Counted from the first letter of the stretch, positions 378 through 5,260 are shown. The stretch: 5,260 nucleotides of DNA from a virus (IMGVR_UViG_2667527608_000018), one strand, 5' to 3'. Numbers and translations: made by a program. Notes: generated by a model not told the origin, from the sequence alone.

Positions 378-469
378 AACAGTTCCGTAATAAACATCCG
401 ATTTCATTCTTATATGCCAGCAATGGCAGGGATTTGTTCACCCTTAAATCTGTAATGAGGTAAAACAAA

Positions 470-2341
470 ATGAGTAAAGTCTTTATTTGCGCCGCCATTC
501 CGGACGAACAGGCAATAAAGGAAGAAGGTGCAGTCGCTGTAGCCACTGCCATTGAAGCCGGTGATGAATGTCGCGCCCGCGCAAAATTTCACTGGCAATT
601 CCTGGAACATTATCCGGCTGCTCAGGACTGCGCTTATAAATTTATTGTCTGCGAGGATAAACCTGGCATACCCCGCCCTGCCCTCGATTCATGGGATGCT
701 GAATATATGCAGGAAAACCGCTGGGATGAGGAGTCTGCTTCTTTTGTCCCGGTTGAGACTGAATCCTATCCGATGAACGTCACTTTTGACAAGCTGGCCC
801 CTGAAGTACAGAACGCTGTCATGGTTAAGTTCGACACATGTGAAAACATCACCGTTGATATGGTGATTAGCGCACAGGAATTGTTGCAGGAAGACATGGC
901 AACATTCGACGGACATATCGTTGAAGCGTTGATGAAAATGCCAGAAGTTAACACCATGTATCCGGAGCTTAAGTTGCACGCCATTGGGTGGGTTAAGCAT
1001 AAATGTATTCCTGGTGCTAAATGGCCCGAAATTCAGGCAGAGATGCGCATCTGGAAAAAACGTCGCGAAGGTGAACGCAAGGAAACCGGAAAATACACGT
1101 CTGTTGTTGATCTCGCCCGCGCCAGAGCCAATCAACAGTACACTGAAAATTCAACAGGAAAAATCAGCCCGGTCATTGCTGCCATTCATCGCGAATACAA
1201 GCAGACATGGAAAACACTGGATGACGAACTGGCCTACGCTCTCTGGCCTGGTGATGTGGATGCCGGAAACATTGACGGCAGCATCCATCGCTGGGCAAAA
1301 AATGAAGTTATCGACAACGGCCGCGAAGACTGGAAGCGTATCTCGGCATCAATGCGCAAACAGCCTGATGCCCTTCGCTACGACCGCCAGACTATTTTTG
1401 GCCTTGTCCGTGAACGTCCGATCGACATTCACAAAGATCCCGTAGCACTGAACAAATATATCTGCGAATACCTGACGACAAAGGGCGTGTTTGAGAATGA
1501 AGAAACAGACCTGGGCACTGTTGATGTTCTCCAGTCATCAGAAACACAAACTGATGCAGTGGAAACTGAGGTATCTGATATCCCAAAAAATGAAACCGCG
1601 CCGGAAGCTGAACCATCTGTAGAGCGTGAGGGGCCGTTCTACTTCCTCTTCACCGACAAGGATGGCGAAAAATACGGTCGCGCAAACAAACTTTCTGGTC
1701 TGGATAAGGCGCTGTCTGCTGGGGCTACTGAAATCACGAAAGAAGAATATTTCGCCCGCAAAAACGGTACATACTCAGGTTCACAACAAAATACTGGTGC
1801 ATCTGACACGACCGCACAACCAGGGTCAGTAAAAGTTACCGCTGACGAAGTAAACAAAATTATGCAGGCAGCCAATATCAGCCAGCCTGACGCCGATGAA
1901 CTGCTTGCAGTATCACGTGGTGAATTTGTTGAAGGGATTAGCGACCCGAATGATCCGAAATGGGTTAAGGGGATCCAGACCCGCGATTCTGTGAACCAGA
2001 ACCAGCAAGAAACGGAACAGAACGACCAGAAAGCGGAACAAAACAGCCCAAATACGCAACAAAACGAGCCAGAAACGAAACAACCTGAACCAGTAGTGCA
2101 ACAGGAACCGGAAAAGATCTGCACCGCCTGCGGTCAGAGCGGTGGCGGCAACTGCCCTGATTGTGGAGCGGTAATGGGTGACGCAACCTACCAAGAGACA
2201 TTCAACGAAGAAAGCCAGGATGAAGCCCGGAAAAAAATCCGGAGGAAATGGAAAATGCCGTGCTCCCGAATAAGCAATGCACCGAAGGCGATCAACATGC
2301 CAATGGCAATAATGAAACAGGCGAGACAGCAAATCCCTTAA
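470..2341 (+). CDS. Large hypothetical prophage early-region protein (623 aa) with acidic Q/N/E-rich low-complexity linker and C-terminal CxxC-x7-CxxC zinc-ribbon-like motif; function unknown
   Basis: Uninterrupted 1872-nt ORF; GAGG (457-460) 9 nt upstream of ATG 470; Cys codons at 2120, 2129, 2153 and 2162. It sits upstream of exonuclease-xis-int, the slot occupied by Ea22-like accessory genes in lambda-family phages (recalled synteny, not sequence similarity). Confidence 0.8.
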   Translation: MSKVFICAAIPDEQAIKEEGAVAVATAIEAGDECRARAKFHWQFLEHYPAAQDCAYKFIVCEDKPGIPRPALDSWDAEYMQENRWDEESASFVPVETESYPMNVTFDKLAPEVQNAVMVKFDTCENITVDMVISAQELLQEDMATFDGHIVEALMKMPEVNTMYPELKLHAIGWVKHKCIPGAKWPEIQAEMRIWKKRREGERKETGKYTSVVDLARARANQQYTENSTGKISPVIAAIHREYKQTWKTLDDELAYALWPGDVDAGNIDGSIHRWAKNEVIDNGREDWKRISASMRKQPDALRYDRQTIFGLVRERPIDIHKDPVALNKYICEYLTTKGVFENEETDLGTVDVLQSSETQTDAVETEVSDIPKNETAPEAEPSVEREGPFYFLFTDKDGEKYGRANKLSGLDKALSAGATEITKEEYFARKNGTYSGSQQNTGASDTTAQPGSVKVTADEVNKIMQAANISQPDADELLAVSRGEFVEGISDPNDPKWVKGIQTRDSVNQNQQETEQNDQKAEQNSPNTQQNEPETKQPEPVVQQEPEKICTACGQSGGGNCPDCGAVMGDATYQETFNEESQDEARKKIRRKWKMPCSRISNAPKAINMPMAIMKQARQQIP

Positions 2342-2397
2342 TTACGGTGAACGGTCATCACGTTATCACATCCACCAGCAGGACGTGTGACCATCTA

Positions 2398-2940
2398 ATG
2401 ATCGACCTTAAAACCATGGGAAAAAATCCTGATGCCCCGATTATCTCAATAGGTGCAATATTTTTCGATCCGCAAACCGGAGATATGGGACCGGAATTTA
2501 GTAAGACTATCGATCTGGAAACTGCTGGCGGAGTCATTGATCGGGACACCATTAAACGGTGGCTTAAGCAATCACGCGAAGCGCAATCTGCCATTATGAC
2601 CGATGAAATCCCGTTAGATGATGCACTGTTACAATTGCGGGAATTTATCGACGAAAACTCCGGTGAATTTTTTGTTCAGGTCTGGGGAAATGGAGCCAAC
2701 TTCGACAACACGATTTTGCGCCGTTCATACGAACGGCAGGGGATCCCCTGCCCGTGGCGTTACTACAACGATCGCGATGTACGCACAATCGTTGAGCTGG
2801 GGAAAGCCATAGACTTCGATGCCAGAATGGCTATTCCATTCGAAGGTGAGCGCCATAATGCACTTGATGACGCCCGTTACCAAGCAAAATACGTTTCAGT
2901 TATCTGGCAAAAACTGATCCCGAGTCAGGCTGATTTTTAA
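2398..2940 (+). CDS. DnaQ-like DEDDh 3'-5' exonuclease family protein (prophage exonuclease); start uncertain (in-frame alternatives GTG 2347, ATG 2248)
   Basis: Translation shows Exo I-like MIDLKTMG at the N-terminus, Exo II-like VWGNGANFDNTIL and Exo III-like ERHNALDDARY (H-x4-D). Stop TAA 2938-2940. AGGA at 2380-2383 is 14 nt from ATG 2398, which is weak spacing. Confidence 0.65.
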   Translation: MIDLKTMGKNPDAPIISIGAIFFDPQTGDMGPEFSKTIDLETAGGVIDRDTIKRWLKQSREAQSAIMTDEIPLDDALLQLREFIDENSGEFFVQVWGNGANFDNTILRRSYERQGIPCPWRYYNDRDVRTIVELGKAIDFDARMAIPFEGERHNALDDARYQAKYVSVIWQKLIPSQADF

Positions 2941-2955
2941 TGTTCAACCCTAATT

Positions 2956-2981
2956 GCCGCTAACCGTATATAGTTAGCGGC
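2956..2981. repeat. Perfect 9-bp inverted repeat (GCCGCTAAC / GTTAGCGGC) with 8-nt AT-rich loop in the exonuclease-xis intergenic region; candidate stem-loop or palindromic protein-binding site
   Basis: Read directly: gccgctaac-cgtatata-gttagcggc. There is no downstream U-tract, so it is not a canonical intrinsic terminator. Confidence 0.5.
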
Positions 2982-2998
2982 GGTTATGAGATATAGCT

Positions 2999-3202
2999 AT
3001 GAGTAGCTTATTTTTAACCGAAGATGAATTGCTAATATTAACGGGCTGCAAATATGCAAGCCACCAGCGAAAATGGTTAACGGAAAACGGGCTTCCGTTC
3101 TATACCAATCGTAGTGGCAAACCGATTGTCAGCCGGGATCTATTTACCTGCAATAAAACTTTACCACCACGCGAGGTAGAGCCGAATTTTGGTGCAATCT
3201 GA
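2999..3202 (+). CDS. xis: Small excisionase-like / recombination directionality factor-like protein (67 aa), resembling the DUF4224-type proteins found immediately upstream of prophage integrases
   Basis: Small ORF directly upstream of the integrase; its stop TGA (3200-3202) overlaps the integrase ATG (3202-3204) as TGATG. The N-terminal LTEDELLILTGCK pattern matches my recollection of DUF4224-like proteins. Confidence 0.55.
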   Translation: MSSLFLTEDELLILTGCKYASHQRKWLTENGLPFYTNRSGKPIVSRDLFTCNKTLPPREVEPNFGAI

Positions 3203-4227
3203 TGGGAAGACGAAGGAAAAATCCTGAACACGAAAAACTACCTCCAAATGTATACCCAAATAAATATAGTTATGTATGGAAACCAACATCCAGAGAATCT
3301 GTCACACTAACCGCCATCAAGGATGGTTTAGCTGCTTTATGGAAAAGGTATGAGGAAACTGTAAATAATCGCGATCGCGCAATGACATTCGGTCGCTTGT
3401 GGGAAAAATTCCTCGCCAGCGCCTATTACAGTGACCTCAGTCCAAGAACACAAAAAGATTATCTACAACATCAAAAAAAGTTGCTTGCCGTATTCGGTAA
3501 GGTGCCGGCAGATTCCATAAAACCAGAACACATCCGTCGATACATGGACAAGAGAGGGGAGCAGAGTAAAACGCAAGCCAACCATGAAAAAAGCAGTATG
3601 TCCCGCGTTTACAGTTGGGGGTATGAGCGAGGGTACGTGAAAGGTAACCCATGTGCAGGTGTAAGTAAATTCAAGGCCAAAAACCGCGAACGATATGTAA
3701 CCGACAAAGAATACCAGGCAGTATTAAGCGTTGCACCTCTTCCTGTTTTTATCGCAATGGAAATTGCCTATCTGTGTGCAGCGAGGGTTTCCGATGTGTT
3801 ATCGCTGAAATGGGAGCAGATTGGAAACGACGGAATCTTTATCCAGCAAGGGAAAACAGGAAAAAAACAGATAAAAGCATGGAGTCCACGATTACAGGCG
3901 GCGATCGAAAAAGCAAAACAGTTACCAACATCCGCCTATGTAATCAGTAATCAATACGGCAACCGATATATGTACAAAGGCTTTAACGAAATGTGGGTAG
4001 AAGCAAGAAATCGCGCAGGCAAAATTTCAGGTATTTTAACCGACTTCACCTTTCATGATCTGAAGGCGAAAGGAATTTCAGACTATGAAGGAAGCAGTCG
4101 GGATAAGCAACTTTTCTCTGGTCACAAAACCGAGGGGCAAGTGCTAATCTATGACAGGAAGGTTAAAGTTTCACCGACACTTGATGTCCCGTTACCTGAA
4201 AATATTCCAAGAAAATATTCCAAGTAA
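3202..4227 (+). CDS. int: Tyrosine recombinase, lambda-family phage integrase (341 aa)
   Basis: N-terminal MGRRRKNPEHEKLPPNVY resembles the lambda Int arm-binding N-terminus (MGRRR...LPPNLY). Catalytic-domain landmarks are present: AARVSD (Arg I), QQGKTGKK (beta-hairpin Lys), FHDLK (His plus the position of Arg II), GHK and LIYDR (catalytic Tyr codon 4150-4152). Confidence 0.9.
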   Translation: MGRRRKNPEHEKLPPNVYPNKYSYVWKPTSRESVTLTAIKDGLAALWKRYEETVNNRDRAMTFGRLWEKFLASAYYSDLSPRTQKDYLQHQKKLLAVFGKVPADSIKPEHIRRYMDKRGEQSKTQANHEKSSMSRVYSWGYERGYVKGNPCAGVSKFKAKNRERYVTDKEYQAVLSVAPLPVFIAMEIAYLCAARVSDVLSLKWEQIGNDGIFIQQGKTGKKQIKAWSPRLQAAIEKAKQLPTSAYVISNQYGNRYMYKGFNEMWVEARNRAGKISGILTDFTFHDLKAKGISDYEGSSRDKQLFSGHKTEGQVLIYDRKVKVSPTLDVPLPENIPRKYSK

Positions 4228-4234
4228 TTCCAAG
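4198..4234. repeat. Tandem direct repeats at the integrase 3' end: 13-bp unit GAAAATATTCCAA twice (4198-4210, 4211-4223), with the 8-bp core ATTCCAAG present three times (4204-4211, 4217-4224, 4227-4234); candidate integrase arm-type binding sites
   Basis: Read directly from the sequence. The repeat copies fall in different reading frames of int (encoding ENIP versus KYSK), which argues for conservation at the DNA level rather than the protein level. Confidence 0.5.
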
Positions 4235-4279
4235 TGTGATTTTTGTCACTGACTTAATGATGTATAAGTGATTGAATTT

Positions 4280-4369
4280 TGGCGGAGAGAGGGGGATTTG
4301 AACCCCCGGTGGAGTTGCCCCCACTCCGGTTTTCGAGACCGGTCCGTTCAGCCGCTCCGGCATCTCTCC
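4280..4369 (-). tRNA. serU: tRNA-Ser (anticodon CGA), 90 nt with long variable arm
   Basis: Reverse complement reads GGAGAGATGCCGGAGCGGCTGAACGGACCGGTCTCGAAAACCGGAGTGGGGGCAACTCCACCGGGGGTTCAAATCCCCCTCTCTCCGCCA: 7-bp acceptor stem, anticodon loop CTCGAAA, T-loop GGTTCAAATCC, encoded CCA end. It matches my memory of E. coli serU. Confidence 0.93.
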
Positions 4370-4404
4370 GTTCAGATGGTTGCCATGATGCCAGGAAATT
4401 TGGC

Positions 4405-4413
4405 ATTTTAACA
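4405..4413 (-). promoter_or_regulatory. Possible extended -10 element (TGTTAAAAT on the - strand) for the tRNA-Ser gene, lying in the divergent serU/mtfA intergenic region
   Basis: TGnTAAAAT motif about 35 nt upstream of the tRNA 5' end on the - strand; no good -35 at 17-bp spacing. Pattern match only. Confidence 0.2.
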
Positions 4414-4462
4414 GTCCCTGTCCGTGCAATTTTGTTCAAGTGACGAGTTTGCGAGCAAAACG

Positions 4463-5260
4463 ATGATTAAGTGGCCCTGGAAAGTACAAGAATCAGCACA
4501 TCAAACTGCCCTTCCCTGGCAGGAAGCACTATCGATCCCCCTTTTAACGTGTCTGACGGAACAGGAACAAAGCAAATTAGTCACTCTTGCCGAACGTTTT
4601 TTACAGCAAAAGCGGCTTGTTCCTTTACAGGGCTTTGAACTGGATTCATTAAGAAGCTGCCGGATAGCACTTCTATTTTGCCTACCCGTTCTGGAGTTAG
4701 GACTGGAATGGCTGGATGGTTTTCATGAAGTCTTAATTTATCCTGCGCCATTTGTGGTCGATGATGAATGGGAAGACGATATCGGTCTGGTGCATAACCA
4801 ACGTATTGTTCAGTCAGGTCAGAGCTGGCAGCAAGGGCCTATCGTTTTGAACTGGTTGGATATACAAGATTCTTTTGATGCTTCTGGTTTTAACCTGATT
4901 ATTCATGAAGTCGCTCATAAGCTGGACACCCGTAACGGCGATCGCGCCAGCGGAGTTCCCTTTATTCCGTTGCGTGAGGTTGCTGGCTGGGAACACGATC
5001 TTCATGCTGCAATGAACAACATTCAGGAAGAAATCGAATTGGTTGGCGAGAATGCGGCGAGCATTGATGCTTATGCTGCCAGTGATCCTGCTGAATGTTT
5101 TGCCGTACTTTCTGAATATTTCTTTAGCGCCCCAGAACTTTTTGCTCCTCGTTTCCCTTCATTGTGGCAACGTTTCTGCCAATTTTATCAACAAGATCCT
5201 TTGCAGAGACTGCATCGCACTAATGATACAGACTCGTTTTCGGCGACGAATGTTCATTAA
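4463..5260 (+). CDS. mtfA: MtfA (Mlc titration factor A), zinc-dependent peptidase with HExxH motif (265 aa); host gene
   Basis: Translation from ATG 4463 begins [20 protein letters not shown] and contains [10 protein letters not shown] (HExxH). The length and sequence match my recollection of E. coli MtfA/YeeI, which neighbours serU. The ORF track's upstream ATG at 4424 adds 13 residues and is probably not the true start. Confidence 0.9.

Follow-up and report, generated by a model that had tools for sequence, protein, structure and literature searches.

Among the more than 12,000 recombinases surveyed by Gibb et al., 2010, the position known as Arg II is occupied by arginine in 99.1% and by lysine in 0.5% (PMC2943603). 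Enzymes with lysine at this position have been described. [quoted passage not shown]

Three described elements, the Sp14 prophage of Escherichia coli O157 Sakai, the Salmonella phage ST64B and the Pectobacterium phage ZF40, encode integrases related to the one reported here. Asadulghani et al. judged the Sp14 integrase to be intact and detected circular Sp14 DNA by attP PCR and quantitative PCR, only after treatment with mitomycin C (PMC2669165). The circular form was much rarer than that of other Sakai prophages, and the same authors considered the Sp14 excisionase possibly non-functional, doubting that it binds DNA (PMC2669165). Excision of ST64B has been measured by attP quantitative PCR (PMC12455584), and its known defect is a frameshift in a tail gene only, not in the integrase (PMC5322425). 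ZF40 is a plaque-forming temperate phage, and its record gives the source as an 'induced lysogen'.

The locus described here lies in a stretch of 5,260 nucleotides from a virus (IMGVR_UViG_2667527608_000018), the whole of which we refer to as the window. On its plus strand, at 3202-4227, the window carries an integrase gene encoding 341 amino acids plus a stop codon, as supported by the ORF itself, Pfam, phmmer and an AlphaFold2/Foldseek comparison. The ORF is uninterrupted, its product is colinear with its homologues from end to end, and the exact protein is found on at least 1000 public contigs. It is a lambda-type tyrosine recombinase with an N-terminal arm-binding, a core-binding and a catalytic domain. 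In Pfam the protein matched PF00589 (Phage_integrase) with 43.8 bits against a cut-off of 27.1 (E 3e-11), together with PF22022 and PF14659, which represent phage-integrase central and SAM-like domains, and it matched PHROG 1 'integrase' with an E value of 1.6e-53; NCBIfam returned sub-threshold Xer matches only and no specific family name.

Structural comparison led to the same family. When all PDB chains were searched with phmmer, only lambda Int entries were recovered (1z1b, 5j0n, 1z1g, 1z19, 1p7d and 1ae9), the best with an E value of 1.6e-12 and residues 1 to 313 aligned, and a profile built from 33 homologues aligned to lambda Int positions 1-319 (E 2.9e-21) with no other match in the PDB. 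The AlphaFold2 model, with a mean pLDDT of 85.7, begins with a three-stranded sheet and a helix (residues 17-58), followed by a helical core-binding domain. Its top Foldseek match was full-length lambda Int (1z1b_A; 349 aligned columns, E 3.6e-16), ahead of the Tn1549 integrase, XerA and the phage Brujita integrase and, lower down, XerD, IntI, XerH and Cre. The alignment with lambda Int from residue 1 and the model together give the lambda-type heterobivalent layout, an arm-binding followed by a core-binding domain, with arm-site binding predicted. Assignment to the IntBPP-1 subgroup, which has an active integrase with lysine at Arg II, was considered and rejected: the protein has no DUF3596 match in Pfam and is matched by lambda Int from its first residue. 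The integrase belongs to the tyrosine recombinase superfamily (PF00589), and the presence of a residue other than arginine at Arg II does not exclude it from that superfamily.

An earlier, sequence-only reading of this DNA had placed a lysine where the second catalytic arginine is expected, and translation, phmmer and MAFFT all bear this out. Box II reads H-D-L-K on the plus strand (4054-4065), with His II at H285 (4054-4056) and Lys288, encoded by AAG (4063-4065), at the Arg II position. That reading assigned the whole of FHDLK to 4054-4065; HDLK is indeed there, but the phenylalanine is encoded by the preceding codon, at 4051-4053. In the phmmer alignment 'tfHDLKakg' is set against lambda 'TFHELRSLS', so that K288 falls on lambda R311, and in the MAFFT alignments with lambda Int the two residues again share a column, with H285 on lambda H308.

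The remaining active-site residues, all encoded on the plus strand, are canonical. Arg I is R195 (codon AGG, 3784-3786), which corresponds to lambda R212 and is invariant in all aligned relatives, whether these carry lysine (Lys-type) or arginine (Arg-type) at Arg II. By alignment, Asp198 (3793-3795) corresponds to lambda D215 at the Glu/Asp I position, the catalytic Lys218 of the beta hairpin (3853-3855) to lambda K235, His III, H308 (4123-4125), to lambda H333, and the tyrosine nucleophile, Y317 (4150-4152), to lambda Y342. The catalytic set is therefore R-K-H-K-H-Y as against the usual R-K-H-R-H-Y. The spacing of nine residues from the histidine of the GHK motif to the tyrosine, which had also been claimed, holds, since H308 to Y317 equals H333 to Y342 in lambda Int. 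Among the relatives, 81 of 82 sequences of the Lys-type and 34 of 36 of the Arg-type keep the tyrosine of Y317. In the modelled catalytic domain, a single helix (residues 285-294) carries both H285 and K288, and the segment around the tyrosine (residues 314-318) is of low confidence.

Lysine at this position is widely shared. Our close set consisted of the best 120 homologues, 55-99% identical, from a search of 5.8 billion proteins, and in the MAFFT alignment all 120 have lysine at the Arg II position. These homologues come from Escherichia, Salmonella, Klebsiella, Citrobacter, Dickeya, Pectobacterium, Sodalis, Hamiltonella, Gilliamella and other genera; the motif FHD[LI]KAKG[IV]SD is almost invariant among them, and K288 itself is invariant whereas its neighbours vary. 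A wider set was drawn from an exhaustive HMMER search and comprised 120 rows, namely the query and 119 full-length representatives of 50%-identity clusters, 32-62% identical. Here both states occur, with lysine in 82 rows, arginine in 36, and asparagine and glycine in one each; the Arg-type relatives share the motif FHD[LI]RAK. On a neighbour-joining tree of 121 tips, Fitch parsimony required four state changes with arginine at the root, two of which are the asparagine and glycine singletons, suggesting that lysine arose once or twice and was then kept.

The codons point in the same direction. At 79 genomic loci, which represent about 70 species, the lysine is encoded by AAA (45 loci) or AAG (34 loci) and an arginine codon never occurs, in a sample that is biased towards lysine because DFTFHDLK was one of the six peptide patterns with which it was gathered. 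The species belong to the Enterobacterales, Aeromonadales, Alteromonadales and Vibrionales, plus one Pseudomonas. The use of both codons indicates that synonymous changes have continued while purifying selection preserved the residue. At those of the loci for which a tRNA gene was identified, this gene follows int on the other strand, mostly no more than a few hundred bases away, and the 3' ends that neighbour Lys-type int genes are those of tRNA-Ser(CGA), tRNA-Ser(TGA) and tRNA-Leu(TAA), which speaks for many independent successful integrations. The sites themselves appear as a series of target switches: the closest Lys-type relatives are found at tRNA-Ser(CGA), relatives of about 54-65% identity at tRNA-Ser(TGA), and those of about 44-53% identity at tRNA-Leu(TAA), where a leuZ-cysT-glyW-like cluster ends.

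Judged by this conservation, Lys288 is evidently an ancient, selectively maintained trait of a large gammaproteobacterial clade and not a mutation of this prophage. The sequence-only reading had offered two interpretations. Its first, an impaired integrase in a cryptic or locked-in prophage, finds no support in a residue that is shared by 120 of 120 close homologues, is encoded by both AAA and AAG across the 79 loci and is present in ST64B, ZF40 and the circularising Sp14. The second, that this lineage tolerates lysine, agrees with the conservation among homologues and with the mobility of relatives that carry it. As for whether homologues at serU have arginine or lysine, Sp14 Int, at 97% identity, has lysine. 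Active close relatives with lysine, which that reading had itself named as evidence that would count against impairment, exist in Sp14, ST64B and ZF40, and active lysine variants of other recombinases are on record in the literature. Lysine at Arg II is thus real and ordinary, and natural lysine variants at the position had already been published.

The surroundings of the gene are those of an integration module. Immediately upstream, at 2999-3202 on the plus strand, lies a gene for a 67-residue DUF4224 protein, predicted to be an excisionase-like directionality factor (PF13986, E 2.8e-16; PHROG 1266 'excisionase', E 2.4e-21), the stop codon of which overlaps the start of int in the sequence TGATG (3200-3204). 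ST64B and ZF40 have an annotated excisionase at the same position. Downstream, on the minus strand at 4280-4369, lies the integration target, the tRNA-Ser(CGA) gene serU, identified with ARAGORN and by the serU annotation in Sakai, with its 3' end facing int. Beyond it, at 4463-5260 on the plus strand, is mtfA, a chromosomal gene flanking the prophage, which matched Pfam Peptidase_M90 and occupies the equivalent position in E. coli O103:H2 str. 12009 and in Sakai. A scan of 2900-4450 for promoters and terminators found nothing above the expectation from shuffled sequence.

A segment of 61 bp in the 3' part of serU (4280-4340) recurs in O157 Sakai beside yodB, at the opposite end of Sp14, where 59 of the 61 positions are the same, the location of Sp14 at serU being that of the Sakai genome record. 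This repeat defines the identity segment of the attachment site. The duplicated core is thus seen through Sp14, as the window stops short of the other end of the prophage that it belongs to. The two mismatches of the Sp14 far-end copy (GGTAGAG...CCCCTAC versus GGTGGAG...CCCCCAC) form a complementary pair in a tRNA stem, and this pair could help to locate the crossover point within the core.

The region from 2900 to 4430 is 100% identical in strain 12009 and in many other EHEC genomes, and 1094 of 5426 complete E. coli genomes contain a single match over at least 80% of this query. Escherichia phage vB_EcoM-606R7 (ON470580.1), whose integrase is 99% identical, was considered as proof of an excising phage and rejected. 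Past the integrase, its 'partial genome' (4082-7023) continues into serU, mtfA, asnT and a salicylate synthetase (siderophore) gene, and a record that runs into chromosomal genes is no evidence of precise excision; it represents either a prophage prediction or DNA packaged by lateral or specialised transduction.

Taken together, we are confident that the gene at 3202-4227 is the intact integrase of a lambdoid prophage at serU, that it comes from a natural lineage in which lysine at Arg II is the normal state, and that it should be competent for integration and excision, the activity of this particular copy being what its relatives lead us to expect. The prophage is inserted in the 3' end of serU and is of the same type as Sp14 of Sakai and CP-933U of EDL933, with an integrase related to those of ST64B and ZF40. 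We propose the following model. In the active site, Lys288 would take the place of Arg II by supplying a positive charge and a hydrogen bond to a non-bridging oxygen of the scissile phosphate, as has been modelled for Cre R292K. Integration and excision would then proceed normally at the 61-bp serU core, with the participation of the upstream DUF4224 excisionase-like protein.

The alternative that survives best accepts that the Lys-type enzymes are functional and would have their mechanism shifted, with slower ligation or a longer-lived covalent intermediate, and with residues of the surrounding shell (Cys192, Ile/Val292 and Ser306) compensating for the lysine or exploiting it. When co-variation with Lys288 was scored across 118 relatives, the strongest was that of Cys192 (3775-3777, plus strand), three residues before Arg I, a position held by cysteine in 71 of 82 Lys-type and by threonine in 34 of 36 Arg-type sequences. 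The position four residues after Arg II (Ile292, 4075-4077) has isoleucine or valine in the Lys-type and alanine in the Arg-type, and that two residues before His III (Ser306, 4117-4119) has serine in the Lys-type and leucine in the Arg-type; the states at these two positions match an alternative arrangement that Gibb et al. describe for the packing about the tyrosine (PMC2943603). Cys192, Ile292 and Ser306 are possible compensatory residues. The behaviour of Cre R292K, active yet accumulating the covalent intermediate, which is a ligation defect, likewise suggests that lysine may carry a kinetic cost. However, the Lys-type sequences form essentially one clade, so that the co-variation is confounded by phylogeny and may be purely phylogenetic. 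We give such a shifted mechanism a minor, though real, chance of being correct. That the integrases of the Sp14, ST64B and ZF40 clade constitute a mechanistically distinct lambda-like subtype, in which the balance of cleavage and ligation or the regulation of the active site is altered, seems to us rather unlikely. If it were true, the clade would be a natural experiment on the replacement of an arginine that is 99% conserved. The possibility of a co-adapted, kinetically distinct active site in this clade is all that we regard as being of residual interest.

It is highly improbable that the lysine is an artefact of alignment, such that K288 lies outside the active site and the true Arg II is another arginine, either close by or displaced in the structure. 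What could be said for this is that the segment around the tyrosine has low confidence in the model and that two arginines lie in the general vicinity, R300, 12 residues downstream of K288, and R319, two residues past the tyrosine, the latter conserved in 74 of 82 Lys-type sequences. No arginine lies within 10 residues of K288, these two being the nearest. Both were considered as compensating residues and rejected. R300 is arginine or lysine among the homologues and lies in a loop that most representatives do not have, and the position of R319 is arginine in 19 and lysine in 9 of the 36 Arg-type relatives as well, which makes R319 no compensation specific to lysine. Moreover, three independent alignments keep K288 on Arg II, the H-x-x-R/K register and the spacing from His III to the tyrosine are those of lambda Int, and K288 is invariant where its neighbours are not. 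The proposal that Arg II might come from a neighbouring residue finds no support in these data.

Two observations could suggest that the gene or its prophage is decaying. The first is an annotation by PGAP in RefSeq: strains 12009 and RM9872 have the identical int, and there it is labelled a 'frameshifted' pseudogene. The int end annotated by PGAP, at window position 4252, is that of a 349-residue variant ending in ...SNSKCDFCH. Around 4199-4224 the int tail contains a 13-bp tandem repeat in two copies, gaaaatattccaa, and the tail exists in forms of 341 (...PRKYSK), 345 (...PSNSKCDFCH), 346 (...PRKYSKCDFCH) and 349 residues, the variable part starting about 16 residues past the catalytic tyrosine. 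Since more distant homologues, at 62-89% identity, end in ...YSK like the 341-residue protein of the window, the latter is not truncated, and the 'frameshifted' flag stems from comparison with the 349-residue variant of a tail that is polymorphic downstream of the tyrosine.

The second observation concerns the neighbouring exonuclease. Its ORF at 2248-2940 reads MIDLKTMG, where the serU prophage of 12009 and Sb30 of ST64B read MIDLETMG; the lysine codon, AAA at 2410-2412, falls in DEDD motif I and gives D-L-K for D-L-E. Of the 69 differences between the window and 12009, 66 fall within a mosaic patch at 2167-2430, and this patch matches the paralogous exonuclease of a prophage at the rspB site of the same 12009 genome, which is annotated as intact and also reads MIDLKTMG. 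The exonuclease lysine is therefore not a private mutation, as it lies in a patch shared between prophage paralogues. Comparison of these sequences suggests that the patch was likely imported by recombination, and the whole paralogue lineage may be catalytically altered. The suggestion of two G-to-A changes at catalytic positions in adjacent genes is not supported, given that the exonuclease lysine is common to an intact paralogue in 12009 and that the integrase lysine is the state of its lineage. Relative to the rspB-site paralogue, the window is without one A near 2230, and the gene is split into ORFs at 470-2341 and 2248-2940; the 12009 exonuclease is a single ORF of 823 residues. The exonuclease allele shorter by 1 bp is flagged as frameshifted in strain 377323_2f. 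None of the complete E. coli genomes searched in RefSeq had the exact mosaic, and the best identity over the whole window among them was 98.7%. In the 12009 serU prophage copy (NC_013353.1, 14523-15736 and neighbours) an element of the IS3 family has inserted in the early region, and several genes are frameshifted or partial; what makes this copy defective has nothing to do with its integrase.

That the lysine is a recent inactivating G-to-A change (AGG to AAG), which has crippled the integrase and locked a decaying prophage into serU, is scarcely credible, for all that Arg II is 99.1% conserved across tyrosine recombinases (PMC2943603), that decay is visible elsewhere, in the frameshifted exonuclease of the window and in the IS insertions and pseudogenes of the 12009 copy, and that PGAP labels int a pseudogene: no arginine occurs at the position among the best 120 relatives, down to 55% identity, both lysine codons are in use across about 70 species, inducible phages and the circularising Sp14 prophage carry the same lysine, and the PGAP flag concerns the C-terminal tail and not the active site.

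The reading of Lys288 as the normal state of its lineage has consequences for annotation. Thousands of prophage integrases in E. coli, Shigella and Salmonella carry lysine at Arg II, and a non-canonical 'catalytic' residue is no ground for calling an integrase or a prophage dead without a check of the lineage. For enzymologists, the Lys-type clade offers a natural set of enzymes in which Arg II has been exchanged for lysine, complete with candidate co-varying residues.

Among known recombinases and related enzymes, lysine at Arg II with retention of recombination or cleavage activity is shared with Cre R292K, vaccinia TopIB R223K and Pal_Y-Int_1 (PMC2943603, PMC12884075). Cre R292K and TopIB R223K are engineered single mutants in an Arg-type background and show a ligation defect, whereas the lysine of the window integrase is native to its clade. 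Pal_Y-Int_1 belongs to another integrase class (Y-BPP1Arm).

The nearest of the described integrases is that of Sakai Sp14 (ECs_2773; the CP-933U type of EDL933), which is 97% identical, has the same FHDLKAKG motif and lies in the same xis-int-serU-mtfA order; it differs by ten substitutions and a one-residue deletion in the arm-binding region. The prophages otherwise differ, the window being only about 90% identical to Sakai over 414-5260. The integrases of ST64B (Sb28; 59% identical) and ZF40 (gp02; 50% identical) both have FHDLKAKG and an excisionase gene directly upstream, and ST64B additionally has an adjacent 3'-5' exonuclease gene; in contrast to these likenesses, the two phages have different hosts.

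Lambda Int (1z1b, 1z1g, 5j0n and 1ae9) is homologous over the full length of the protein, from the MGRRR...LPPN arm-binding N-terminus to the catalytic tyrosine. The two proteins share the three-domain fold, Arg I, the aspartate, the lysine, His II, His III, the tyrosine and the spacing between these residues. At about 21% identity, the window integrase differs from lambda Int in having Lys288 for Arg311, C-A-A-R for T-G-Q-R in box I, isoleucine for alanine four residues after Arg II, and serine for leucine two residues before His III. Its target differs as well: it is a tRNA gene with a 61-bp identity segment, unlike that of lambda, whose attB lies between gal and bio.
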